Below, one piece after another: positions 1 to 10,750 of a stretch of DNA of 32,000 nt; within the stretch, counting starts at the first letter, position 1, and every line of letters begins with the position of its first letter. The stretch is from assembly GCA_001029695.1 (NCBI GenBank), contig CP011211.1:180001-212000 (forward strand). Reading direction: 5' to 3'. Source of the stretch: Candidatus Saccharimonadota bacterium (GTDB taxonomy: Bacteria; Patescibacteriota; Saccharimonadia; Saccharimonadales; Saccharimonadaceae). The notes beneath the pieces were generated by a model. It searched no databases, was not told where the DNA came from, and saw nothing but the letters and a program-made list of their open reading frames with translations. The position numbers were made by a program, and so were the translations under genes.

Positions 1-192
1 CTTACGGAGCGCCGAGTTTGGCTTCTTTGGTGTTTTTGTTGTTACCTTGATACAAACACCACGCTTAAGTGGACTTGTCTGCTCGTAGTAACGAACCTTT
101 AGTGCGTTATGGATACGACCAAGCGCAGGTGACTTCGACTTTTTCGCCGCAGTCTTGCGTGGCTTACGCACCAATTGATTGATTGTTGGCAT
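1..192 (-). CDS. rpsL: 30S ribosomal protein S12, first 64 codons (gene continues past the left edge)
   Basis: Not in the ORF track because it is truncated. The reverse complement of 1..192 translates to [64 protein letters not shown], the canonical S12 N-terminus. An AAGGGAG Shine-Dalgarno lies about 10 nt upstream of the ATG at 192..190. Confidence 0.93.
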
Positions 193-357
193 TGTTATGC
201 AACTCCCTTGGTAATTTAACATTCTTTATAGAGACAAGAAATCGTCTCTGGTACGAGTTGGATTCAGCAGCTCCGCCTCGTGTCATACTACAAAACTTTA
301 GTTCACGCGTACACATTCAATGCGTTTACTAATTTTCGTAGAGGAAACTCATCTGAC

Positions 358-386
358 AGTATAGCAAATTATTTGCTTTTTAACAA
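358..386 (-). promoter_or_regulatory. Putative sigma70-type promoter of rpsL (TTGTTA-17 nt-TATACT), implying a 5' UTR of about 160 nt
   Basis: On the minus strand, -35 TTGTTA is at 386..381, the spacer is exactly 17 nt, and -10 TATACT is at 363..358. The leader contains the hairpin AGAGAC-N8-GTCTCT. Confidence 0.5.
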
Positions 387-417
387 TAAGACTACGGCGA
401 TTATGCCGTAGTCTTAT
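386..417 (-). terminator. Perfect 13-bp stem-loop (ATAAGACTACGGC / GCCGTAGTCTTAT, 6-nt loop) ending the upstream cassette; abuts the rpsL -35
   Basis: The inverted repeat was read directly. The trailing T-tract on the minus strand is weak (ATTGTT), so termination efficiency is uncertain. Confidence 0.5.
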
Positions 418-424
418 AATCATT

Positions 425-497
425 CGAAAGTGAGCCTGCCAAAAGGAGCTCATGCTACGAATATCTCCATTCGTGAGCAGGCTCAACTTTCGGCAGG
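425..497 (-). repeat. Long imperfect inverted repeat / extended stem-loop just after the stop of the 112-aa ORF
   Basis: CGAAAGTGAGCCTGC (425..439) pairs with GCAGGCTCAACTTTCG (477..492), with a 1-nt bulge and a 37-nt loop. CCTGCC (435..440) can alternatively pair with GGCAGG (492..497). Confidence 0.45.
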
Positions 498-504
498 GTT
501 GTAC

Positions 505-843
505 TCATGCAGCAGGGTTTTTCAATCGATCACCAATTTGAGCGCTGATCTCCTCTATCTCTTGGCGCGCTGGTGAGTTTTCGGCGAGAATCTCATTGAA
601 ACTCCCAATAAGTGTCCTCGCGATGAACCTGTACTTTGCACATGTTGGCTGCTTTTCCGAATCACTACGGATCCTGTACAGCTCGTCATATACACCTCTT
701 GCGTCGTAAGCCATGAGTAATTCATGCAGCTTCTCGCCATGATGGCGATTGAAATCCTCGTGACGATCTAGTGCTTTACGTATTACATCGAACCAAGGTC
801 GATAAACACTACTCACCAGGTCCTGAGAAAATACTTTACTCAT
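505..843 (-). CDS. Hypothetical protein, 112 aa from ATG 843 (115 aa if GTG 852 is used); predicted all-helical; downstream gene of the two-gene cassette
   Basis: ORF-track entry 505..852. The GTG at 852 overlaps the upstream TGA (GTGA). An ATG at 843 lies 5 nt after that stop and is preceded by AGGGTGA. No family motif was recognised. Confidence 0.6.
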   Translation of the reverse strand: MSKVFSQDLVSSVYRPWFDVIRKALDRHEDFNRHHGEKLHELLMAYDARGVYDELYRIRSDSEKQPTCAKYRFIARTLIGSFNEILAENSPARQEIEEISAQIGDRLKNPAA

Positions 844-848
844 AAAGA

Positions 849-1043
849 TCACCCTGTTTCGATTGCACTCGTGTTCAAAGTTGGCTCGTCCGACTTTTCA
901 TTGTCGAGCAAGGCAAGAACACCAGTTGGTTGTATCACGGCAGCGTCGTAGCTATTGTTCGCCAAAGCCGCGCGAGTGAAGTGTCCTACAGTTACTTCGG
1001 TATCCGTCCTACTAAAAGGAGGGACCACTCTTCTGCATGACAT
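849..1043 (-). CDS. Hypothetical 64-aa protein with an acidic C-terminal tail; upstream gene of the cassette (antitoxin-like position)
   Basis: AAGGAG lies 5 nt upstream of ATG 1043. The stop overlaps or abuts the start of the next ORF. The sequence TEVTVGHFTRAALANNSYDAAVIQPTGVLALLDNEKSDEP weakly resembles the Phd/YefM pattern. Confidence 0.6.
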   Translation of the reverse strand: MSCRRVVPPFSRTDTEVTVGHFTRAALANNSYDAAVIQPTGVLALLDNEKSDEPTLNTSAIETG

Positions 1044-1094
1044 TACGTCTCCTTATGCTGAGTAGACATGTACTTACCTGTATGGTACCTTCTT

Positions 1095-1123
1095 ATAATA
1101 ACCCCTTGTACTTGCGGTTTCAA
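1095..1123 (-). promoter_or_regulatory. Near-consensus promoter of the cassette (TTGAAA-17 nt-TATTAT)
   Basis: On the minus strand, -35 is at 1123..1118, the spacer is 17 nt, and -10 is at 1100..1095, about 50 nt upstream of ATG 1043. Confidence 0.55.
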
Positions 1124-1221
1124 CCACTTTCATGGTTTTTGTAAGATTTCTTACTGCGAGACTCGTCGATATGATCGCCGAGCGGCTAACAATAAACCAG
1201 TCCGAGTAAACGACTACATCT

Positions 1222-1252
1222 AAAAAACACCCGCATCGAGCGGGTGTTTTTT
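1222..1252 (-). terminator. Rho-independent (bidirectional-type) terminator after rpoC
   Basis: AAAAAA-CACCCGC-ATCGA-GCGGGTG-TTTTTT, 16 nt after the rpoC stop (1268). Confidence 0.85.
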
Positions 1253-1267
1253 AGAAGAGTAAAAACT

Positions 1268-4200
1268 CTACTCTGCGATGTCGAGGATCTCTTCGACTTC
1301 AACTTCCGTAATAACTTCCTCAGGAGTATTAACAATCGCACCAGTTCCCACAGGGATCTTACGTCCGATGATAACATTCTCCTTGAGTCCGTGAAGACGG
1401 TCAGCGCGTCCACTTGTTGCTGCGCTAATCAAGACACGAGTCGTATCTTGGAATGACGCTGCAGAAAGCCAACTATCGCTCCAGATCGATACCTTCGTGA
1501 TACCGAGGAGTAGCTGCGTATACTGCACAAGTTCTTGGCCGCGTGCCGCGAGTTCTGCGTTTGCATCGACGACTGCAGCTTTTGATACGATATCGCCAGT
1601 TACAAACGTGCTCTCGCCTGGATCTTCCACCTGAACACGACTGAACATCTGTCGCACAATGATCTCAAGGTGCTTGTCAGCAACATCTTGACCCTGTGCC
1701 GCATAGATGCGCAGTACTTCGTTAATGATGTAACGTTGAGTCGCCTCAGTACCCTTAAGTCGCATGAGATCATGCAAGTTCAGTGATCCGATAGTGAGAC
1801 GATCACCCGCCTCAACCTGATCATTCGCTCGAACAACAAGTTGCGTGTTGCCTGGAATCTCGTAACGTACTGGTGCGCCTGCGTTTGCAGCAAGTACCAA
1901 TGTGTCTTCAGCAACCTCTACGACACCATCAAATGGCGCAACGAGCGGTCGAGCTTCACCTTCGCTTGATGCAAGAACGTCACCAACCTTTACATTACTT
2001 CCTGACTTCACGTTGATCGTACGGCCTTCAAGAGCAATTCGCTCAACATGGCCAGCTTCAGGTGTTACCTGGACGATGTACTTCTTGCCATCTTCCCAAA
2101 TATCAACCGTACCAGTTACTTCAGTGACAAACGCCTGACCCTTTGGTGAACGGGCTTCAAAGAGCTCTTCAACACGAGGGAGACCCTGTGTGATGTCTCC
2201 ACCAGCAACACCACCGGCGTGGAAGGTTCGAAGCGTTAGCTGTGTACCAGGCTCACCGACAGACTGTGCGGCGATAACACCAACCGGCTGTGCATTTGCA
2301 ACAAGACTACCAGTTGACATATCGATACCGTAGCTCTTCTTTGGAATACCACGAAGGTTCTTTGTAGAGAGTACAGATTGGATCTTTACTTCATCAATTG
2401 AGCTATCAGCTTCAATTGCTTCAGCTACACTCATCGTAATGAGCTCATCCTTCTTGATATGTGATCCCACATCTTCAGCTGTGAATCGTCCGTAAAGACG
2501 GTTCTTGAAGTCGATCATTGTCTCTTCAGTTTCAGCACGGCGAATAGCGAATCCTTCATCATCACCTTCTTCGTCTTCAACCGTAAAGACATCCTGAGAT
2601 ACATCGACAAGACGACGAGTCAGGTAGCCTGAGTCGGCAGTCTTAAGAGCGGTATCGATCAGACCCTTACGTGCACCACGTGTCGCCACGAATGATTCGA
2701 GTGATGAAAGCCCTGCTTTATAGCTTGAACGAATAGGAAGCTCAATCTCACGGTTTGCTGCATCCACCATGATTCCTACCATCGCAGAAGCAAGCTTCAC
2801 GTTTGAGATATCACCACGGGCACCTGAGTTCACCATGACACTAATGCTTGTATCCATGTTCTTGAGTTGATCTTGCAAGAACTCTGTTACCTTACGGTCA
2901 ACGCCACGCCATGACTGGACGGTCAAGTTGTACCGTTCGTCTTCTGTGATGAGACCTTGGTCGAATTGATCAGAGATCAACGCTGTCTTCTCGTCACCTT
3001 CAGAGACAAATTCACCAATTTCGTCAAAGTTAAGGTAGTCGTCTTTACCTGTCGATACAGCGGCGATTGTCGCAAATCGGAAGGCAAGACCCTTCATGCG
3101 GTCAGCGATCTTTGCTGTTTCCTCTGCATCATACTGGTTGAAAATCTTCGCAAGAACTTTCTTAAGCTGCTTCTTGTTCTGTACGCTATTGTCGTACGGA
3201 TAGTCTGCAGGAAGAATCTCGTTGAAGAAGACGCGTCCAAGTGTTGTATCGCGGATTTCACCCTTCGCAAATACACGAATTGGTGTCTGAAGCTGCAGTA
3301 CACCCTGGTCATATGCCATCTCAGCTTCGTAGACTGAGCTATATGCTTTCGTCTCTTTAGTCTGAGCACTTGGCTTTTCGTAGGTAAGGTAGTAATTACC
3401 AAGGACAACGTCCTGGCCGATATTGAGTACCGGAGCACCATCGGCAGGTTTAAGAAGGTTGTTTGTTGCACTCATGAGTTCGCGAGCTTCACGCTGCGCG
3501 TCGTCAGAAAGTGGCAAGTGAACAGCCATCTGGTCACCATCGTAGTCGGCGTTAAATCCGTTTGCTACGAGTGGGTGAAGTTGGATCGCCTTACCTTCAA
3601 CAAGTACCGGCTGGAATGCCTGAATTGAAAGACGGTGAAGTGACGGCGCACGGTTAAGAAGAACGTACTTACCTTCAATCACTGCGTCGAGTGCGTCCCA
3701 TACCAGTGTGTCGCCCGACTCGATAAGTCGAGTTGCAGAACGGATGTTGTGAGCATGCTCACCACGGATAAGCCAGCTAATGACGAATGGCTTGAATAGC
3801 TCAAGTGCCATTTGCTTTGGTAGACCACATTCAGAAATCTTTAGCTTTGGACCGACAACAATCACTGAACGTCCTGAGTAGTCGACACGTTTACCGAGAA
3901 GGTTCTGACGGAAACGTCCCTGCTTACCCTTGAGCATATCAGAGATTGACTTCAGGCGACGGCGGCCACCAGTTGCGTTAACTGCACGACCACCACGGGC
4001 TGCAGAGTTGTCAACAAGTGCATCAACAGCTTCTTGAAGCATACGCATCTCATTGCGACGGATTACTTCAGGGGCATTGAGGTCGATAAGCTTCTTAAGG
4101 CGATTATTACGGTTGATCACACGACGATAAAGGTCGTTAAGATCAGATGTCGCAAAACGGCCACCTGTAAGCTGTACCATTGGACGAAGATCCGGTGGAA

Positions 4201-5101
4201 TCACAGGAAGAACAGTAAGACATAGGCTGTTTGGACGGATGCCCGCTGCTTGCATACCCTCAAGTACCTTAAGGCGTTTGAGCAGCTTCTTCTCGCGCTG
4301 ACCCTTAGCACCTTCGACTTCTTCACCAAGCTGCTTGATGAGTGTTGGAAGGTCGATTGCATCAAGCATAGCTTTGATTGCCGTACCACCCATACCAACA
4401 GTTGCGAGCTCTTCGTACTCTTCAGGAAGATTGCGGTAGTCAGTTTCGTTAAGAAGTGCACCCTTTACGAGACTATCAAGCTGCGCTTTCTTTGTGTTGA
4501 AACTCTCATTGAGCTCTTCAACTTCTCGTGATTGAGCTGCAGCAAGTGCTTTTACGTCAGCACCTTCAGCTTCAGCTTCTTTTTCGTAGCGGATCTTGAT
4601 CGCCATGCGACCAGCTTCAGTCTCTGCTTCTAGATCAGCGAGGAATTGATCGCGCTTTTCAGTCTCTACATCAAGGATGATATAGCTTGCAAAGTATGCT
4701 ACGCGCTCGATATTTCGAACCGTAATACCAAGAAGCAAGCTCATCGCACTTGGCGTACCGCGCATAAACCAGATGTGTGCAACTGGAGCAGCGAGGTTGA
4801 TGTGTCCCATTCGCTCACGACGGACGATAGACTTAGTGACAAGCTCACCGTTCTTATCGATCGCTGCTTCACGAGAGCGGACGCCCTTAAGCTTACTGTC
4901 GTGTGGATTAATATCTTTCACTGGTCCGAAGATTCGTTCACAGAAAAGTCCATCACGCTCAGGCTTTTGAGTACGATAGTTGATTGTTTCTGGCTTAGTG
5001 ACTTCACCGTGACTCCACTTAAGCATGTCCTCTGGACTTGCTACGGCGAGACGTACAGCGTCAAAGTCAGCAATACCGGTGCCTGCAACAACTCGTGACA
5101 T
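1268..5101 (-). CDS. rpoC: DNA-directed RNA polymerase subunit beta-prime (1277 aa)
   Basis: Catalytic NADYDGDQMAVH is present, along with RRERMGHI, GYLTRRLVDV and AAQSVGEPGTQLTLRTFH blocks. The start is 1 nt after the rpoB stop, with GGAGGAGG upstream. Confidence 0.98.
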   Translation of the reverse strand: MSRVVAGTGIADFDAVRLAVASPEDMLKWSHGEVTKPETINYRTQKPERDGLFCERIFGPVKDINPHDSKLKGVRSREAAIDKNGELVTKSIVRRERMGHINLAAPVAHIWFMRGTPSAMSLLLGITVRNIERVAYFASYIILDVETEKRDQFLADLEAETEAGRMAIKIRYEKEAEAEGADVKALAAAQSREVEELNESFNTKKAQLDSLVKGALLNETDYRNLPEEYEELATVGMGGTAIKAMLDAIDLPTLIKQLGEEVEGAKGQREKKLLKRLKVLEGMQAAGIRPNSLCLTVLPVIPPDLRPMVQLTGGRFATSDLNDLYRRVINRNNRLKKLIDLNAPEVIRRNEMRMLQEAVDALVDNSAARGGRAVNATGGRRRLKSISDMLKGKQGRFRQNLLGKRVDYSGRSVIVVGPKLKISECGLPKQMALELFKPFVISWLIRGEHAHNIRSATRLIESGDTLVWDALDAVIEGKYVLLNRAPSLHRLSIQAFQPVLVEGKAIQLHPLVANGFNADYDGDQMAVHLPLSDDAQREARELMSATNNLLKPADGAPVLNIGQDVVLGNYYLTYEKPSAQTKETKAYSSVYEAEMAYDQGVLQLQTPIRVFAKGEIRDTTLGRVFFNEILPADYPYDNSVQNKKQLKKVLAKIFNQYDAEETAKIADRMKGLAFRFATIAAVSTGKDDYLNFDEIGEFVSEGDEKTALISDQFDQGLITEDERYNLTVQSWRGVDRKVTEFLQDQLKNMDTSISVMVNSGARGDISNVKLASAMVGIMVDAANREIELPIRSSYKAGLSSLESFVATRGARKGLIDTALKTADSGYLTRRLVDVSQDVFTVEDEEGDDEGFAIRRAETEETMIDFKNRLYGRFTAEDVGSHIKKDELITMSVAEAIEADSSIDEVKIQSVLSTKNLRGIPKKSYGIDMSTGSLVANAQPVGVIAAQSVGEPGTQLTLRTFHAGGVAGGDITQGLPRVEELFEARSPKGQAFVTEVTGTVDIWEDGKKYIVQVTPEAGHVERIALEGRTINVKSGSNVKVGDVLASSEGEARPLVAPFDGVVEVAEDTLVLAANAGAPVRYEIPGNTQLVVRANDQVEAGDRLTIGSLNLHDLMRLKGTEATQRYIINEVLRIYAAQGQDVADKHLEIIVRQMFSRVQVEDPGESTFVTGDIVSKAAVVDANAELAARGQELVQYTQLLLGITKVSIWSDSWLSAASFQDTTRVLISAATSGRADRLHGLKENVIIGRKIPVGTGAIVNTPEEVITEVEVEEILDIAE

Positions 5102-5102
5102 A

Positions 5103-8100
5103 TTACACCTCCTCCTTAATTTCTTCTACTTCATCAATATCTTGAATACTCATTCCATCTTCAATGTCACCGAACTCGTCAGCTTCATCGAGAACTGTCT
5201 CTTCGTCGTCTGAACTTGGTACCATTGGCACTGACTTATCAGCTGGACCACTTTCGGCGATGATTTCTTCAGCATCAATCACAGCATCTTCTGACTCATC
5301 AAGAAGATCAACACGAAGACCAAGCCCCTGAAGCTCCTTCACGAGTACGTTGAATGATTCTGGAAGTTTCGGTCCAACAATCGCTTCGTTCTTAATGATT
5401 GATTCGTACGCCTTTGCACGACCATATACATCATCAGACTTGATAGTAAGCATTTCTTGAAGTGTCGTGGCAGCGCCATAAGCTTCAAGTGCCCATACTT
5501 CCATTTCTCCGAATCGCTGTCCACCATTTTGCGCTTTACCGCCAAGTGGCTGCTGAGTCACCATCGTGTATGGACCAGTCGAGCGAGCGTGAATCTTATC
5601 GCTCACCATGTGGTGAAGCTTAATAATATGCATCACACCAACAGTCGTACGTTCTTCAAATGGCTCACCAGTTCGTCCGTCAAAGAGCTGGCTCTTTCCG
5701 TCACGTGCATAACCGGCTTTTTCAAGCTCAGAGCTAATCGTCTCATCAGTCACACCGTTAAATGGTGGGGTTGCAACCTTGTAGCCAAGTGCTCGCGCCG
5801 CCATACCGAGGTGTGTTTCAAAGAGCTGACCAATATTCATACGGCTTGGAACACCAAGTGGGTTCAAGACAACATCTACTGGAGTACCGTCTTCCATAAA
5901 TGGCATATCCTCGATTGGGAGAATACGGGCCACAACACCCTTGTTACCGTGACGACCCGCAAGCTTGTCTCCAACAGAGATTTTACGAAGCTGTGCAACG
6001 AAAATCTGGATCTGCATAAGTACGCCAGCTTTTAGTTCATGACCATTCTCACGTGAGAAGATCTTTACGCCGACAACTTTACCACCACCAGCGTTATTCA
6101 TACGCTGAGAGGTATCGCGAACGTCTTTAGCCTTCTCGCCGAAGATCGCGCGAAGGAGTCGCTCCTCAGAACTGAGCTCTTGCTCACCCTTTGGTGTAAT
6201 TTTACCGACAAGCACATCGCCAGCTTTTACTTCAGAACCAATTTGAACGATACCGTTCTCATCAAGGTGACGAAGTGATTCTTCACTAACGTTTGGAATG
6301 TCACGTGTGACAATCTCTGGACCTAGCTTCGTCTCACGAACTTCTACATTGTAGTCCTTGATGTTGATGCTTGTGAGGGCATCCTCTTTGACGATACGAT
6401 CAGAAAGAACGATCGCGTCATCCATGTTGTAACCACCCCAAGGCATAAATGCCACAGTAAGGTCACGACCAAGTGCAAGTTCACCGTCAGCAACAGATGC
6501 ACCTTCGATAAGAATATCGCCAGCTTTCACCTTCTGACCACGTGTAACACATACTTTTTGGTTGATTGAGCGATCATCGTTACTCTTCGTAAAGTGGATC
6601 GGCTCGTAAATCTTTACACCATCAGAGTACTTTACATGTACTTCGTCAGCATCAGCACGAACAACTTCACCGTCACCTTCGGCAACAACAAGCTGACTTG
6701 TGTTGCGAGCAACTTCTGCTTCAATACCCGTTCCAACAGTTGGAGACTCAGGGGTAATAAGCGGCACTGCCTGTCGTTGCATGTTTGAACCCGTAAGTGA
6801 ACGGTCAACACGGTTTTTCTCAATAAATGGCACGAGAGATGCAGTAGAACCAAGAATTTGCTTATGAGCAGCATCAAGGTACGTTACTTCGCTAGCATCA
6901 ACCTGCTCAGGGAGCAGACCGTTACGAGCACTGACGCGCTCAGCAGCAAATGAACCATCATCGTTCAAAGCAGCACCGGCATCAGCGATCACTTCAACGA
7001 TCTCTTGACTTGCGTCAAGATAGACAATCTCATCAGTCACTTTACTGTCTTTTACCTTGAGGTAAGGAGTTTCAATAAAGCCGTATTCATTGACACGAGC
7101 ATAGGTTGCAAGGTTGAGTACAAGTCCAATGTTCGCACCTTCAGGTGTCTCAACAGAACAAAGACGACCGTAGTGAGTTGGGTGCGCATCACGCACGTCA
7201 AATCCAGCGCGCTCACGTGAAAGTCCTCCAGGACCCATTGAGCTAAGGCGTCGTTTGTGTGAAAGTTCAGCAAGTGGGTTTGTCCCATCCATAAGCTGTG
7301 AAAGCTGTGAACTTGCAAAGAATTCGCGAACCGCTGCAACAACTGGACGAGCATTGATAAGCTGTCCCGGCGTTACATTCTCGAGGTCGCTCATGCTCAT
7401 ACGATCCATAGCATTTCGTTGCATACGAAGCATACCAACACGGAACTGACGAGCAACAAGCTCACCAACAAGCTTCACACGACGATTCGAAAGTGCATCG
7501 ATATCATCTGGAAGTTCCTGTGTGTTGTTGAGACGGATAATCTCTTTGATGATTGCGATAAGGTCGCTCATCTGGAAGACACGGTTTTCAGTCGTGTTGG
7601 CAACTTCCAGGTTGAGGCGCTGGTTGAGCTTATAGCGACCGACGCGACTATAGTCAAATCGCTTGAAATCAAAGAACATCTTCTCGATCATGCCACGAGC
7701 ATTCTCTACTGTCGCAAGATCGCCTGGACGAAGACGACGGTACACTTCGATAAGTGCTTCGTTTGAACCGCGTGCTGGATCTTTTTCAAGTGTTGCGTCG
7801 ATGTACTTCACATCACCCGTGTCAACGTCTTCAAAAATACTTTTGATTTCGCTCGTCTTGTTGTGGCCAAGAGCGCGAAGAAGCGTTGTGACAGGAAGTT
7901 TGCGTCGACGATCGATCTTGACGAAGATCGCACCGTTGCTTGCAGTCTCAAACTCAAGCCATGCACCACGGCCAGGGATAAGTTTCGCGCCGTAGTTATT
8001 ACGACCAGCAGCGCTATCAGCTGTAAAGAATACACCCGAGCTACGAATAAGTTGAGATACAACAACACGCTCTGTACCGTTAATGATAAATGTACCGCGG

Positions 8101-8456
8101 TCAGTCATCCATGGATAATCACCAAGGTAAATCTCTTGCTCTTTTACTTCACCAGTTACTTTGTTTGTTAGCTCAACGTTTACGTGAAGCGGCGCATCAA
8201 AAGTAAGGTTATTTTCCTTTGTGTCGACTTCTGTAACTTTTGGATCCTGGAACGCATATTCCTTGAATCGAAGTTCAAGCTTTTGGCCTGTGTAATCCTC
8301 GATAGGATTTAGTTCTGAAAAGATCTCGCTCAAGCCAGTCTCGACGAATTCACGCCAGCTGTCTTTTTGGTGAGCGATGAGATTTGGTAGTGGTAATGCA
8401 GTGTCGTCCTTTGTGAAAAAGACACGCTTACCAGCATTAGGCTTGGTATTTGCCAT
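5103..8456 (-). CDS. rpoB: DNA-directed RNA polymerase subunit beta (1117 aa from ATG 8456)
   Basis: Conserved blocks NMQRQAVPL, GRHGNKGVV and PSRMNIGQ are present. GAGGAG lies 5 nt upstream of ATG 8456, so the track start at 8471 is probably a 5-codon over-extension. Confidence 0.97.
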   Translation of the reverse strand: MANTKPNAGKRVFFTKDDTALPLPNLIAHQKDSWREFVETGLSEIFSELNPIEDYTGQKLELRFKEYAFQDPKVTEVDTKENNLTFDAPLHVNVELTNKVTGEVKEQEIYLGDYPWMTDRGTFIINGTERVVVSQLIRSSGVFFTADSAAGRNNYGAKLIPGRGAWLEFETASNGAIFVKIDRRRKLPVTTLLRALGHNKTSEIKSIFEDVDTGDVKYIDATLEKDPARGSNEALIEVYRRLRPGDLATVENARGMIEKMFFDFKRFDYSRVGRYKLNQRLNLEVANTTENRVFQMSDLIAIIKEIIRLNNTQELPDDIDALSNRRVKLVGELVARQFRVGMLRMQRNAMDRMSMSDLENVTPGQLINARPVVAAVREFFASSQLSQLMDGTNPLAELSHKRRLSSMGPGGLSRERAGFDVRDAHPTHYGRLCSVETPEGANIGLVLNLATYARVNEYGFIETPYLKVKDSKVTDEIVYLDASQEIVEVIADAGAALNDDGSFAAERVSARNGLLPEQVDASEVTYLDAAHKQILGSTASLVPFIEKNRVDRSLTGSNMQRQAVPLITPESPTVGTGIEAEVARNTSQLVVAEGDGEVVRADADEVHVKYSDGVKIYEPIHFTKSNDDRSINQKVCVTRGQKVKAGDILIEGASVADGELALGRDLTVAFMPWGGYNMDDAIVLSDRIVKEDALTSINIKDYNVEVRETKLGPEIVTRDIPNVSEESLRHLDENGIVQIGSEVKAGDVLVGKITPKGEQELSSEERLLRAIFGEKAKDVRDTSQRMNNAGGGKVVGVKIFSRENGHELKAGVLMQIQIFVAQLRKISVGDKLAGRHGNKGVVARILPIEDMPFMEDGTPVDVVLNPLGVPSRMNIGQLFETHLGMAARALGYKVATPPFNGVTDETISSELEKAGYARDGKSQLFDGRTGEPFEERTTVGVMHIIKLHHMVSDKIHARSTGPYTMVTQQPLGGKAQNGGQRFGEMEVWALEAYGAATTLQEMLTIKSDDVYGRAKAYESIIKNEAIVGPKLPESFNVLVKELQGLGLRVDLLDESEDAVIDAEEIIAESGPADKSVPMVPSSDDEETVLDEADEFGDIEDGMSIQDIDEVEEIKEEV

Positions 8457-8482
8457 CTGTACTCCTCGCATGAGTTAAATAT

Positions 8483-8511
8483 TTAGTGAATTGGCCACGA
8501 AGATTCACTAA
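8483..8511 (-). promoter_or_regulatory. 9-bp stem-loop in the rpoB leader (TTAGTGAAT-N11-ATTCACTAA)
   Basis: Perfect inverted repeat about 27 nt upstream of the rpoB start. Function unknown. Confidence 0.3.
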
Positions 8512-8644
8512 GCTTGGCACGTCCCACCCCTGTTGCCGACAGAAAAGAGACACACTGTACCAAACTACACTACTTCTTAGTATCAACTATGCATCAAAGA
8601 GGAAAAATAATCAAGAGATTAAAAGAGGGATTTATAATGAAAAC

Positions 8645-9457
8645 CTATGACTTCGTTACTATTCCCCACAAAAGTGCGGCAATCACCGCAAAAATGCCAA
8701 AAACGATAGTATAGATTCGGTTCCTTGAACGTAACGACATGATAATCGTAAAGATACTGCTTACGATAATTAGTCCATAGAACGGCACAATTACAGGCAA
8801 CAATACTAGCGATCCACCCCCAAACCAAAACTGAGGGTCAGAAAGCGCAGCTATCGCTGGAGGAACAAGCAGCGCGACAGTAACGCTCCCAAGGAGTATT
8901 TGAGCTGACAAATGATGGTCAAGCTCATCAGCCGCATCGTCCCAAAAATAATATGATACAAGCATACTCATAGCTAACGCTATGGCACCAGTACTGGCTA
9001 TCACAAACGTTGAATAAAAGATCACCGTCACCCATGCCATCGAGTCCCCGCCTAGTAGCATGCAAACATACAATACAAGGGACACAATACCAAATGGCAA
9101 TATACATTTCCTGACAGTAGCATGCATCCTCTCGGCGATGGTTATATCGCCGTAGTGCATCAAAGGAGGTGCTTCAGCCTTTACCACAGGGTTTAACACT
9201 TTTTTAAAGTCCGCGCTCGCTCTGAGGACGAGAGCGCAAAATGTAAACGGTAACACAAATAGGCCTATAGTCATGATTCCGAATGCAAGCTCGGGCAATT
9301 GCCTGCCACCTAAATGCTCCATGTATAGAGACACGCCAGGAATAATCAAGAAAAAAACCAGTAAGATAATATTCAGCCAACAATAGAACTTGAACATCTT
9401 CGAGTATACTCTGACAGCCGGCTTTATATCTGTTTCATTTTTTAGTGTTGTCTGCAT
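8645..9457 (-). CDS. Hypothetical polytopic membrane protein (about 270 aa)
   Basis: ORF 8645..9496 contains many hydrophobic segments. The annotated TTG start is actually the -35 box of a strong promoter, so ATG 9457 (or 9466) is the likelier start. Confidence 0.7.
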   Translation of the reverse strand: MQTTLKNETDIKPAVRVYSKMFKFYCWLNIILLVFFLIIPGVSLYMEHLGGRQLPELAFGIMTIGLFVLPFTFCALVLRASADFKKVLNPVVKAEAPPLMHYGDITIAERMHATVRKCILPFGIVSLVLYVCMLLGGDSMAWVTVIFYSTFVIASTGAIALAMSMLVSYYFWDDAADELDHHLSAQILLGSVTVALLVPPAIAALSDPQFWFGGGSLVLLPVIVPFYGLIIVSSIFTIIMSLRSRNRIYTIVFGIFAVIAALLWGIVTKS

Positions 9458-9467
9458 TACTAACATG

Positions 9468-9496
9468 ATTATAGTATGAGGCTCTGTGGTCGTCAA
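9468..9496 (-). promoter_or_regulatory. Strong promoter TTGACG-17 nt-TATAAT for the 270-aa membrane protein gene; very short or no leader
   Basis: -35 is at 9496..9491, the spacer is 17 nt, and -10 is at 9473..9468. ATGs lie at 9466 and 9457, i.e. 2 and 11 nt after the -10. Confidence 0.55.
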
Positions 9497-9500
9497 AGAA

Positions 9501-9519
9501 AAGGTAGCAGCTCCACCTT
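9501..9519 (-). terminator. Small stem-loop plus U-rich tract after the 200-aa membrane protein gene
   Basis: On the minus strand, AAGGUGG-AGCUG-CUACCUU is followed by UUCUUUG; it overlaps the TAA stop. Confidence 0.35.
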
Positions 9520-10120
9520 ATATAAGATAAAGCATCAGAGCAAATATACATACATAGATAATAATTATAGCAAGCGTAATACGCCAAACTTTACGAAACC
9601 ACTTATCGTTCAGCCTCGCTGCCCAAATAAACAGTACAAAAAACAATAAGACATACAGCGGCGTTGTAAATAAAAATACTGGATACAGTAAAGCAGCAAG
9701 ACCAATCCCGCTAGGAATAAATGTAGCACCTACTACGAGGAGTTGGGTCCACATCGTTACGCCTATAACGAGGGGTGGCAATATAAGCACAAGCCAAAGA
9801 ATAAACCACTTACGTTGCTCGGTAAATGGCAACGTCAGTCCTCGTTGTATGCCGAATTTTGCAGCCGTAGCCAGTAACATAGCTCCGCTAAAAACAGCTA
9901 CACATATGGAAACTAGCAGTAGTACTCCTATCGTTTTTTTTACGAGCGAGGCATCGATATCGCTTGGCTCAGGCACAAGAATCACCAGCACAACAAAGGC
10001 TATCAATGAAATGAAAAATAACCGTCGCCACTTACGTGCCGTAACGTCGTGCTCTTTTGCCTCTATATCCCCGGAGCCCTCTAGTTGCTTATGTAAATCA
10101 TCATTCATTCCATAGATCAT
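9518..10120 (-). CDS. Hypothetical membrane protein (200 aa, about 5-6 TM segments)
   Basis: Long ORF with a charged N-terminus followed by repeated hydrophobic stretches. No family recognised. Confidence 0.7.
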   Translation of the reverse strand: MIYGMNDDLHKQLEGSGDIEAKEHDVTARKWRRLFFISLIAFVVLVILVPEPSDIDASLVKKTIGVLLLVSICVAVFSGAMLLATAAKFGIQRGLTLPFTEQRKWFILWLVLILPPLVIGVTMWTQLLVVGATFIPSGIGLAALLYPVFLFTTPLYVLLFFVLFIWAARLNDKWFRKVWRITLAIIIIYVCIFALMLYLI

Positions 10121-10156
10121 AGCATATTACTATGGCCTGTAAGAGCGTACTGTATG

Positions 10157-10750
10157 CTACGCTTTCGTAATCACCTCATCAACGAGTCCATACTTCACCG
10201 CTTCTTCTGCACTCATCCAGAAATCACGGTCAGCATCTTTTTCGATCTTTGAGATTTTTTGACCAGTATTTTTAGCGAGAATTTCGTTGAGCTTTTGCTT
10301 CAAGAATAGTCCTTCACGAAGTGTAATCTCTTGATCAGTAATCTTACCTTGCGTACCACTGCTAGGCTGATGGATCATGATTCGACTATTTGGTAATGCG
10401 AATCTCTTACCCTTCGTGCCACTCGAGAGCAAGAACGCACCCATACTTGCCTGAAGTCCAATGCCGATCGTTTGAACATCAGGACCGATATACTGGATTG
10501 TATCGTAAATCGCAAGGCCATCATATACACTTCCACCCGGGCTATTGATATACAGTTTAATATCTTTCTTGTTGTCAGCATATGCCAGGTGAAGCAGCTG
10601 CGCCACGACAACATTTGCAGTATGCTCGTTGACATCTTCTCCTAGAAAAATGATTCGTTCGTTGAGTAATCGCGAGTAAATATCAAAAGCACGCTCACCA
10701 TCGTGGGTTTTCTCGATAACCGTTGGAACAAGATAACTTTTTGGACTCAT
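10157..10750 (-). CDS. clpP: ATP-dependent Clp protease proteolytic subunit
   Basis: The Ser-His-Asp context is present ([22 protein letters not shown]). AAGGAGAATAGT precedes ATG 10750, so the track start at 10786 is likely over-extended. Confidence 0.95.

Follow-up and report, generated by a model that had tools for sequence, protein, structure and literature searches.

A probable strain-variable slot for orphan gene pairs upstream of the rpsL operon in one species of Saccharimonadia

Introduction

What are the two small genes that separate rpoC from rpsL in a member of the Saccharibacteria, and do they form a toxin-antitoxin (TA) system? Genomes of the Candidate Phyla Radiation (CPR), to which the Saccharibacteria belong, are tiny and streamlined, and these bacteria live attached to host bacteria. 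The DNA considered here is a stretch of 32,000 nucleotides (nt) from contig CP011211.1 of a Candidatus Saccharimonadota bacterium. It is referred to as the window, and positions are those within this window. On its minus strand, the rpoC open reading frame (ORF; 1268-5101) and the rpsL start codon (ATG 192) enclose a spacer of 1,075 nt with two ORFs, orfA and orfB. A preliminary description, made from the sequence, had interpreted this pair as a self-contained cassette with the architecture of a type II TA or defense module. The analysis presented here indicates instead that positions 505 to 1072 are probably one allele of a two-gene slot upstream of the rpsL operon, which varies between strains of one species of Saccharimonadia, offers the same promoter to different occupants, and harbors orphan genes.

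Results and Discussion

Two unrelated blocks at the same position

The exchangeable block of the window, named allele 1, is 568 bp long (505..1072, minus strand) and consists of a 5' untranslated region (UTR), orfA, and orfB. A conserved left flank is located upstream of it (1073..1123, minus strand), which contains a putative promoter and roughly the first 15 nt of the transcript predicted from it. The window was compared with contigs of the same species and with 80 Saccharimonadia loci that were fetched by the C terminus of RpoC (76 to 89% amino acid identity). Contig L097 shares 96.5% DNA identity with the window over 6.3 kb of rpoB-rpoC, which makes it a member of the same species or nearly so. 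In L097, L098, L099, and L101, a block of about 520 bp without DNA similarity replaced window positions 1072..505. The left flank of this block matched window positions 1195..1073 with 95 to 98% identity, including the whole promoter and the approximately 15 nt beyond the predicted start, and the right flank matched positions 504..1 with about 99% identity, beginning one base past the stop codon of orfB. The contigs L102 to L105 carried the identical type of replacement block, named allele 2. Such a dimorphism of cassettes under one conserved promoter is unexpected, and the orfA-orfB unit cannot be called fully self-contained any longer, because the promoter and the first 15 nt or so of the predicted transcript are common to a nonhomologous allele.

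Allele 2 also contains two ORFs, altA, which encodes an acidic protein of 31 amino acids (aa; MPLATHTSTLAQIVEALKEQIIPVEDKDPRK), and altB, which encodes a basic protein (pI 8.9-9.5) of 93 or 94 aa. The AltB protein would comprise 121 aa if translation started at an ATG 4 nt past the altA stop codon, which is preceded by AAGGAAG. The possibility that the two alleles are divergent homologues gained no support: BLASTP produced only a short and non-collinear match between the larger proteins (E = 0.028) and no alignment between the small ORFs, the between-allele shuffle z-scores were 2.0 and -1.5, and the hhalign probability was 5.8%. The allele 2 proteins had no Pfam or PADLOC match and no relative in the 80 loci.

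The polymorphism of allele 2 in eight contigs demonstrates that altA and altB are real genes under purifying selection, with a moderately relaxed constraint. The altA gene displayed 8 synonymous and 5 nonsynonymous changes, with 8 of the 13 at third codon positions. In altB, this ratio was 19 to 17, with 21 of 36 changes at third positions and an additional in-frame indel of one codon. The pairwise pS values of allele 2 were between 0.16 and 0.25, compared to 0.16 to 0.35 for the neighboring genes, and pN/pS was about 0.05 to 0.27.

The noncoding pieces around these two ORFs, which are the 96-bp promoter and 5' UTR, the 84-nt spacer between the ORFs, and the 349 bp leading to rpsL, were about 99% identical between strains, compared to 89 to 96% for other intergenic regions of the same strains. 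The spacer between altA and altB (L097:10550-10633, 84 nt) had a single variable site among 8 strains, and the ORFs on both sides varied at about 14% of their sites. It folds into a hairpin of -25 kcal/mol, with a z-score of only -1.5. The spacer may act as an RNA element, or it may belong to an N-terminal extension that is unusually constrained.

Which allele is present does not depend on the variant of the neighboring gene. Allele 1 was found both with and without a cluster of surface-protein genes upstream of it, and allele 2 was found together with variants of g118, a gene of this cluster for a 118-aa protein, that were 97% and 82% identical to the g118 variant linked to allele 1. The absence of linkage between the blocks and the flanking variants implies an exchange by homologous recombination, and the conserved arms on both sides of the slot would supply the homology. 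The idea of an accessory module, which was part of the preliminary description, agrees with this behavior as a unit exchangeable between conspecific strains. An origin from a mobile element was rejected, since no relatives of the pair were found in phages, plasmids, or IMG/VR, and the GC contents of the two blocks (0.47 and 0.49) resembled that of the genome (0.46-0.47).

Evidence that orfA and orfB are genes

The orfA gene (849-1043, minus strand) encodes 64 aa. It starts with ATG 1043, 5 nt behind the Shine-Dalgarno sequence AAGGAG (1054-1049), and ends with TGA at 851-849. The second gene, orfB (505-843, minus strand), encodes 112 aa from ATG 843, which follows the orfA stop codon after a gap of 5 nt and has GGGTGA as a Shine-Dalgarno-like site. 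Alternatively, a start at GTG 852, which overlaps the orfA stop codon (GTGA, 849-852), would yield 115 aa. All elements of the layout that had been claimed, namely, a minus-strand unit with a terminator of rpoC, a promoter, the AAGGAG site, both ORFs, the GTGA overlap, stem-loops, and palindromes, were recovered at the correct coordinates, and these coordinates also support a discrete and tightly coupled two-gene unit with its own promoter-like site.

Both ORFs are probably protein-coding sequences, as judged from codon usage and polymorphism. A codon-usage model built from 21 long ORFs found in the window ranked the annotated frame first of six for orfA as well as for orfB. The codon score of orfB was 0.11, a value that no more than 1.5% of the off-frame chunks taken from real genes attained, and its GC contents by codon position (0.56/0.37/0.45) were similar to those of the genes of the window (0.59/0.39/0.42). 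The polymorphism of allele 1 was obtained from 16 fetched conspecific contigs that were 1 to 2% apart. The rpoC gene displayed in these contigs 71 synonymous and 4 nonsynonymous changes, and orfA displayed 5 of each, an enrichment of synonymous changes compared to the ratios of 1:9 and 2:8 in its other two frames. Both ORFs were intact in 15 of the 16 contigs; the remaining one, a contig of low coverage (single-read depth), had a 1-nt deletion near the C terminus of orfB.

It is very improbable that the block is a pseudogene remnant, such as one gene split by a frameshift or cargo in decay, or encodes a noncoding RNA. A proven gene remnant indeed exists next to it (1151..1195, minus strand), and orfA and orfB do not share a reading frame, with the stop codon of the first overlapping a start codon of the second. 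However, a tblastx comparison of window positions 498-1222 with the 80 related loci identified no remnant of any gene, no homologues of either half exist that could define a parent gene, the annotated frames were the best of six, and the alternative allele is likewise composed of two ORFs. An Rfam scan of the region gave only subthreshold matches, which were driven by the terminator and the hairpins. Evidence for one frameshifted gene, an outcome that the preliminary description had said would argue against its interpretation, did not turn up.

The promoter region and the hairpins

The sigma-70-like promoter match of the left flank, TTGAAA-17-TATTAT (1123..1095, minus strand), agrees with the consensus at 10 of 12 positions. 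All three short palindromes that had been considered operators are situated upstream of its -35 box. The first, GTAAGAAATCTTAC (1141..1154, not assigned to a strand), has 6-bp arms and spans the stop codon of the remnant gene. The second (1157-1165) and the third (1177-1186) sit within this remnant, which comprises the last 14 codons, ending with AARRSYRRVSQ, and the stop codon of the 118-aa surface-protein gene. These two palindromes differ among strains at codon-like positions, and the third is disrupted by a single-nucleotide polymorphism (1184 C>T) in 7 of 9 strains. The first was kept in strains with either allele and is, therefore, not specific to the orfA-orfB cassette. A function as operators of this pair is not supported, since two of the three sites belong to the coding part of a remnant, the site at 1141..1154 crosses its stop codon, and the sites are shared with an unrelated allele. 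The statistical weight of the promoter match and of the palindromes is modest; for the latter, three were observed compared to 0.88 expected, and 6.7% of the shuffles yielded three.

Two hairpins follow orfB on the minus strand. The long one (435-497, 63 nt) is at the start of the right flank, and the second (386-417), with a perfect stem of 13 bp, abuts the -35 box of the rpsL promoter. They are very stable, with a joint z-score of -8.2. Neither has a U tract. They differ in this from the intrinsic terminator of rpoC (1219..1255, minus strand), in which an A run precedes and a T run follows a perfect 16-nt inverted repeat (1219-1234/1240-1255). Due to these runs on both sides, the rpoC terminator could work bidirectionally; it is part of the context outside the cassette. 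The long hairpin is common to both alleles and to the related species L001, L002, L007, and L006. Its presence in genomes without the cassette makes it a part of the older flank. The second hairpin is kept within the species, but in the relatives its place is taken by other hairpins or is empty. The assignment of the two stem-loops as terminators of the cassette was consequently not maintained, because the first belongs to a flank conserved in species without cassette, and both are devoid of a U tract. Two alternative registers are available to the long hairpin, CCTGCCGAAAG/CTTTTGGCAGG or CGAAAGTTGAGCCTGC/GCAGGCTCACTTTCG, with one compensatory pair, and the swapped block has its right boundary precisely at this hairpin.

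No link to known toxin, antitoxin, or defense families

Neither OrfA nor OrfB produced a credible match in Pfam, NCBIfam, PADLOC, PHROGs, or the sequences of the PDB. With Pfam, NCBIfam, and PADLOC at E ≤ 10, nothing was obtained but one subthreshold chance match. The family searches as a whole yielded only Arc_C (E = 0.16) and phrog_5585 (E = 0.26), both at chance level. The PADLOC-DB v2 profiles gave no match at E ≤ 10 for the proteins of either allele. In a word-indexed search of 5.8 billion clustered proteins, each protein matched only its own cluster, the members of which were at least 96% identical; those of the only cluster of OrfA were more than 97% identical. The records in these clusters are AKM80091 and AKM80092 of Candidatus Saccharibacteria GW2011_GWC2_44_17. 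When 1.84 billion representative proteins were searched exhaustively by phmmer, for which OrfB was the only query, the output consisted of OrfB itself and two artifacts, P0013 and P0014, which are tandem-repeat proteins with weak repeated matches that add up. A protein scan and a flank-DNA scan of JGI metagenomes were both empty, and a full-text search of the literature found nothing on the locus or its proteins.

The OrfA protein is acidic (pI 4.75), and OrfB, with a pI of 6.4, is not basic. Single-sequence AlphaFold modeling predicted OrfA to be essentially unstructured, with one helix of 5 residues and no beta core (pLDDT 54, pTM 0.11). For OrfB, an all-helical model with five helices was obtained at low confidence (pLDDT 63), and Foldseek comparison of this model with the PDB and BFVD gave no match under E = 1. 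The beta-rich core that had been proposed for OrfA was not recovered in this low-confidence model. The statement that the pair has no recognizable family was borne out by the profile and sequence searches and, in the case of OrfB, by the exhaustive phmmer and Foldseek searches as well. An R-x5-H motif (RKALDRH) near the N terminus of OrfB may recall HEPN proteins, but no HEPN profile or fold matched, and the motif was attributed to chance.

None of the four proteins of both alleles contains a transmembrane segment or a signal peptide. The maximum of the Kyte-Doolittle hydropathy over 19 residues was ≤0.67 in all of them, compared to 2.61 in the product of g118, which served as a membrane control. 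Neither of the small ORFs has a double-glycine leader as far as can be seen from reading the sequences by eye, so that the features of a bacteriocin or polymorphic-toxin immunity system were not found.

A classical type II TA system as represented by Phd/Doc or RelBE is not supported by these data. It is also unlikely that the pair is a type II TA system of a new family, in which the acidic OrfA would act as the labile antitoxin, with OrfB as the toxin to be neutralized, and would also repress the promoter of its own gene. Several features are shared with TA systems. Two small codirectional genes, presumably cotranscribed and coupled, are adjacent behind one promoter-like site, the smaller gene is upstream of the larger one and separated by a 5-nt gap or joined by a 4-nt overlap, and the product of the upstream gene is acidic and seems to be disordered. 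The locus is strain variable and swapped as a unit, and in allele 2 the larger protein is basic and encoded behind an acidic 31-aa ORF. On the other hand, no toxin, antitoxin, or defense profile matched, and the profiles together with the low-confidence fold of OrfB connected the pair to none of the toxin superfamilies (RelE/ParE, MazF, VapC/PIN, Doc/Fic, HipA, HEPN, GNAT, etc.) or to any solved structure, toxin folds included. In OrfA, family profiles detected no DNA-binding domain of the RHH, HTH, AbrB, or Phd/YefM type, and its low-confidence model displays none. Moreover, OrfB lacks the basic character, and two of the three presumed operators are located in remnant coding sequence. The identity of the promoter and the upstream palindromes in front of two unrelated alleles is a poor fit to an autoregulation specific for one allele. 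Members of TA families are typically patchy in their distribution and present in multiple copies. The orfA-orfB pair, in contrast, is known only from one chromosomal locus of one species and is not associated with mobile elements. In total, nothing that was tested places the pair into a TA or defense family, as had been proposed.

A gene-turnover hotspot behind rpoC

The distance between rpoC and rpsL was determined for 72 loci that reached rpsL, 4 conspecific contigs included; in several others, rpsL was past the fetched flank of 4 kb. The spacer was between 196 and 3,478 bp long and shorter than 300 bp in only 11 of the 72 loci. The direct adjacency of rpoBC and rpsL, which had been taken as the normal situation, does not apply to this clade, where the rpoC-rpsL junction is a hotspot of gene turnover and not a fixed neighborhood. 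None of the 80 loci contained a relative of orfA or orfB as judged by tblastn, phmmer --max, and tblastx. The pair is, therefore, not universally conserved at the junction, where conspecific strains may have the other block, and it does not display the conserved presence of a housekeeping factor. Other cargo in the spacer comprised pilin-like, LysM/WxL-interacting, and cyclopropane-synthase genes and many genes for hypothetical proteins, and the closest species hold unrelated small ORFs. Beyond the species, conservation of the DNA was limited to window positions ~197-497, a segment that comprises the long hairpin together with the promoter and the leader of rpsL.

In two related species, the small ORFs at the equivalent position (L002:5605-5910 and L007:5300-5551) have one short motif in common, with QARGVLRQNHKLVAAVNNGD and QAEGVFRGKTELLAAVTSGD occupying the same residues (z = 6.4). 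This indicates that some occupants of the slot may be very fast-evolving homologues rather than independent insertions.

Slot or passengers

Within the slot, orfA and orfB would be transcribed from the shared sigma-70-like promoter, with orfB being translationally coupled to orfA. The products, an acidic and apparently disordered protein of 64 aa and a helical protein of 112 aa, would be soluble, reside in the cytoplasm, and act jointly. As a partner pair, they would most likely serve as a strain-specific accessory module of a conflict or compatibility type, resembling a toxin and its antidote in logic. This role is a guess based on the architecture and on the fact that deep alternative alleles coexist.

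Several observations weigh against the interpretation of the block as a functional, promoter-sharing gene pair. Dinucleotide shuffling of the 1,075-nt spacer produced a promoter match of at least 10/12 in 19% of cases. The shared promoter might chiefly serve the rpsL operon, with the ORFs being passengers. The codon score of orfA was borderline (0.009) and was matched by 12% of the off-frame chunks of real genes. With 3 synonymous and 8 nonsynonymous changes, orfB had the same ratio as its off-frames, and 4 of these nonsynonymous changes stem from a single contig of low coverage. Since the allele 1 strains differ by only 1 to 2%, the polymorphism of orfB is indistinguishable from neutral change. 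Finally, both structural models are of low confidence (pLDDT 63 for OrfB and 54 for OrfA).

Some of these points lead to a different explanation, according to which orfA and orfB are passengers or young orphan proto-genes in a spacer with fast turnover, have little or no function, and the promoter and the flanks are conserved for the expression of rpsL. The spacer is hypervariable (196 to >3,400 bp) with unrelated small ORFs even in close relatives, neither ORF has a homologue, orfB is under a constraint that is weak or could not be measured, disorder is predicted for OrfA, and no canonical terminator separates the cassette from rpsL. This explanation is nevertheless quite unlikely. The ORFs of allele 2 are under clear purifying selection, with a third-position bias and an indel that preserves the frame, and one edge of the swapped block falls on the stop codon of orfB. 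Both ORFs of allele 1 possess well-placed Shine-Dalgarno sites and are intact in nearly all contigs (15/16), and rpsL is equipped with a separate promoter of its own that other species have conserved as well. For allele 1, the passenger interpretation stays alive, because the constraint on orfB could not be measured.

Relation to known systems

Loci with idiomorph-like allelic replacement are known from streptococci, such as the pherotype or bacteriocin-immunity cassettes. The slot upstream of rpsL resembles these loci with respect to nonhomologous blocks at the same position, nearly identical flanks, and occurrence in conspecific strains. It differs from them by the absence of a secreted peptide, leader, transporter, kinase, or membrane immunity protein; four small, soluble proteins without a family are encoded instead.

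A conserved promoter upstream of a promoterless, exchangeable ORF block, followed directly by an imperfect palindrome of about 63 nt, is also reminiscent of an integron cassette. However, the hairpin at 435-497 is in the flank, is identical for both alleles, and does not travel with the cassette, and there is a single slot and no array. The precomputed Pfam annotation of the 20-kb L097 locus contained no integrase or recombinase family; the 32 kb of the window itself were not scanned for an integrase. The integron-like interpretation was rejected due to the assignment of the hairpin to the flank and the absence of a recombinase family from these 20 kb of L097. Orphans specific for a lineage in intergenic hotspots are similar in having no homologues outside one species and in a content and length of the region that differ in almost every relative. 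They are different from the slot described here, which contains two discrete alternative blocks with sharp common boundaries, one of them under measurable purifying selection.

The preferred interpretation, a slot with two alternative orphan gene pairs, would mean that even a streamlined genome keeps a highly conserved expression platform for cargo that is swapped between strains, with cargo proteins for which searches of billions of sequences returned no relatives. If functional, the slot offers a compact and tractable entry to accessory functions at the strain level, possibly in conflict, immunity, or host specificity. As a far-reaching and rather doubtful extension, the slot might represent a balanced polymorphism of unrelated two-protein modules of the toxin-antidote or compatibility type that belong to undescribed families, are driven by a single conserved promoter beside the ribosomal-protein operon, and are used for strain discrimination, phage exclusion, or specificity of the host interaction in episymbiotic Saccharibacteria. 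The example also calls for caution, as the architecture alone is insufficient to infer a TA system.

Features next to the slot

The rpsL gene is preceded by the promoter TTGTTA-17-TATACT with a TG extension (386..358, minus strand). Together with a structured and conserved 5' leader, this promoter forms the context of the slot on its right side and the right homology arm (193..386, minus strand). The leader (193-350, minus strand) is conserved across about 40 species of Saccharimonadia, with the boxes GAGTTTCC and GAATGTGTACA and a nested helix pair, GACA-CGAGG-CGGAG-ATGCTGA-aTCC-AA-CTCGTA, at approximately 236-283. All 7 base pairs predicted by RNAalifold display compensatory changes, and no Rfam match was obtained for the leader at E ≤ 10. 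It may be an undescribed ribosomal-protein leader. On several short contigs, gene callers predicted a small gene antisense to this leader, which corresponds to 232-411 on the plus strand of the window, and 30 such antisense ORFs from relatives cluster together. Most likely, this ORF reflects the conserved DNA of the leader and is not a real gene.

On the other side of the slot, the window genome has lost a cluster of four surface-protein genes by a clean deletion of about 4 kb with its junction at 1195/1196. In L087, L088, L091, and L094, orfA-orfB are present, the homology to the window is lost upstream of ~1192, and a large Ser/Thr-rich protein and the 118-aa protein are encoded there. The latter has a hydrophobic segment at its N terminus. 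It also contains an APDTG motif with a hydrophobic stretch and an Arg-rich tail behind it, an arrangement similar to a cell wall sorting signal. The last 14 codons of its gene survive at window positions 1195-1154 with 93% identity. The full order of genes, as present in L097, L102, L103, and L104, is rpoB, rpoC, the genes for the 209-aa, 381-aa, 579-aa, and 118-aa proteins, the cassette, and rpsL; in L104, the 579-aa gene was called as 548 aa, and the 118-aa gene was not called although its sequence is present. In L097, the four genes occupy positions 6308-10312 (L097:6308-10312), which are absent from the window. Homologues of the surface-protein genes also come after rpoC in other species (L013, L015, L055, L062, and L065), which indicates that the long form is ancestral. 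The product of the 381-aa gene contains WxLIP_PGBD and LysM domains, and we take the cluster to be reminiscent of the cell-surface complex (Csc/WxL) clusters of Firmicutes.

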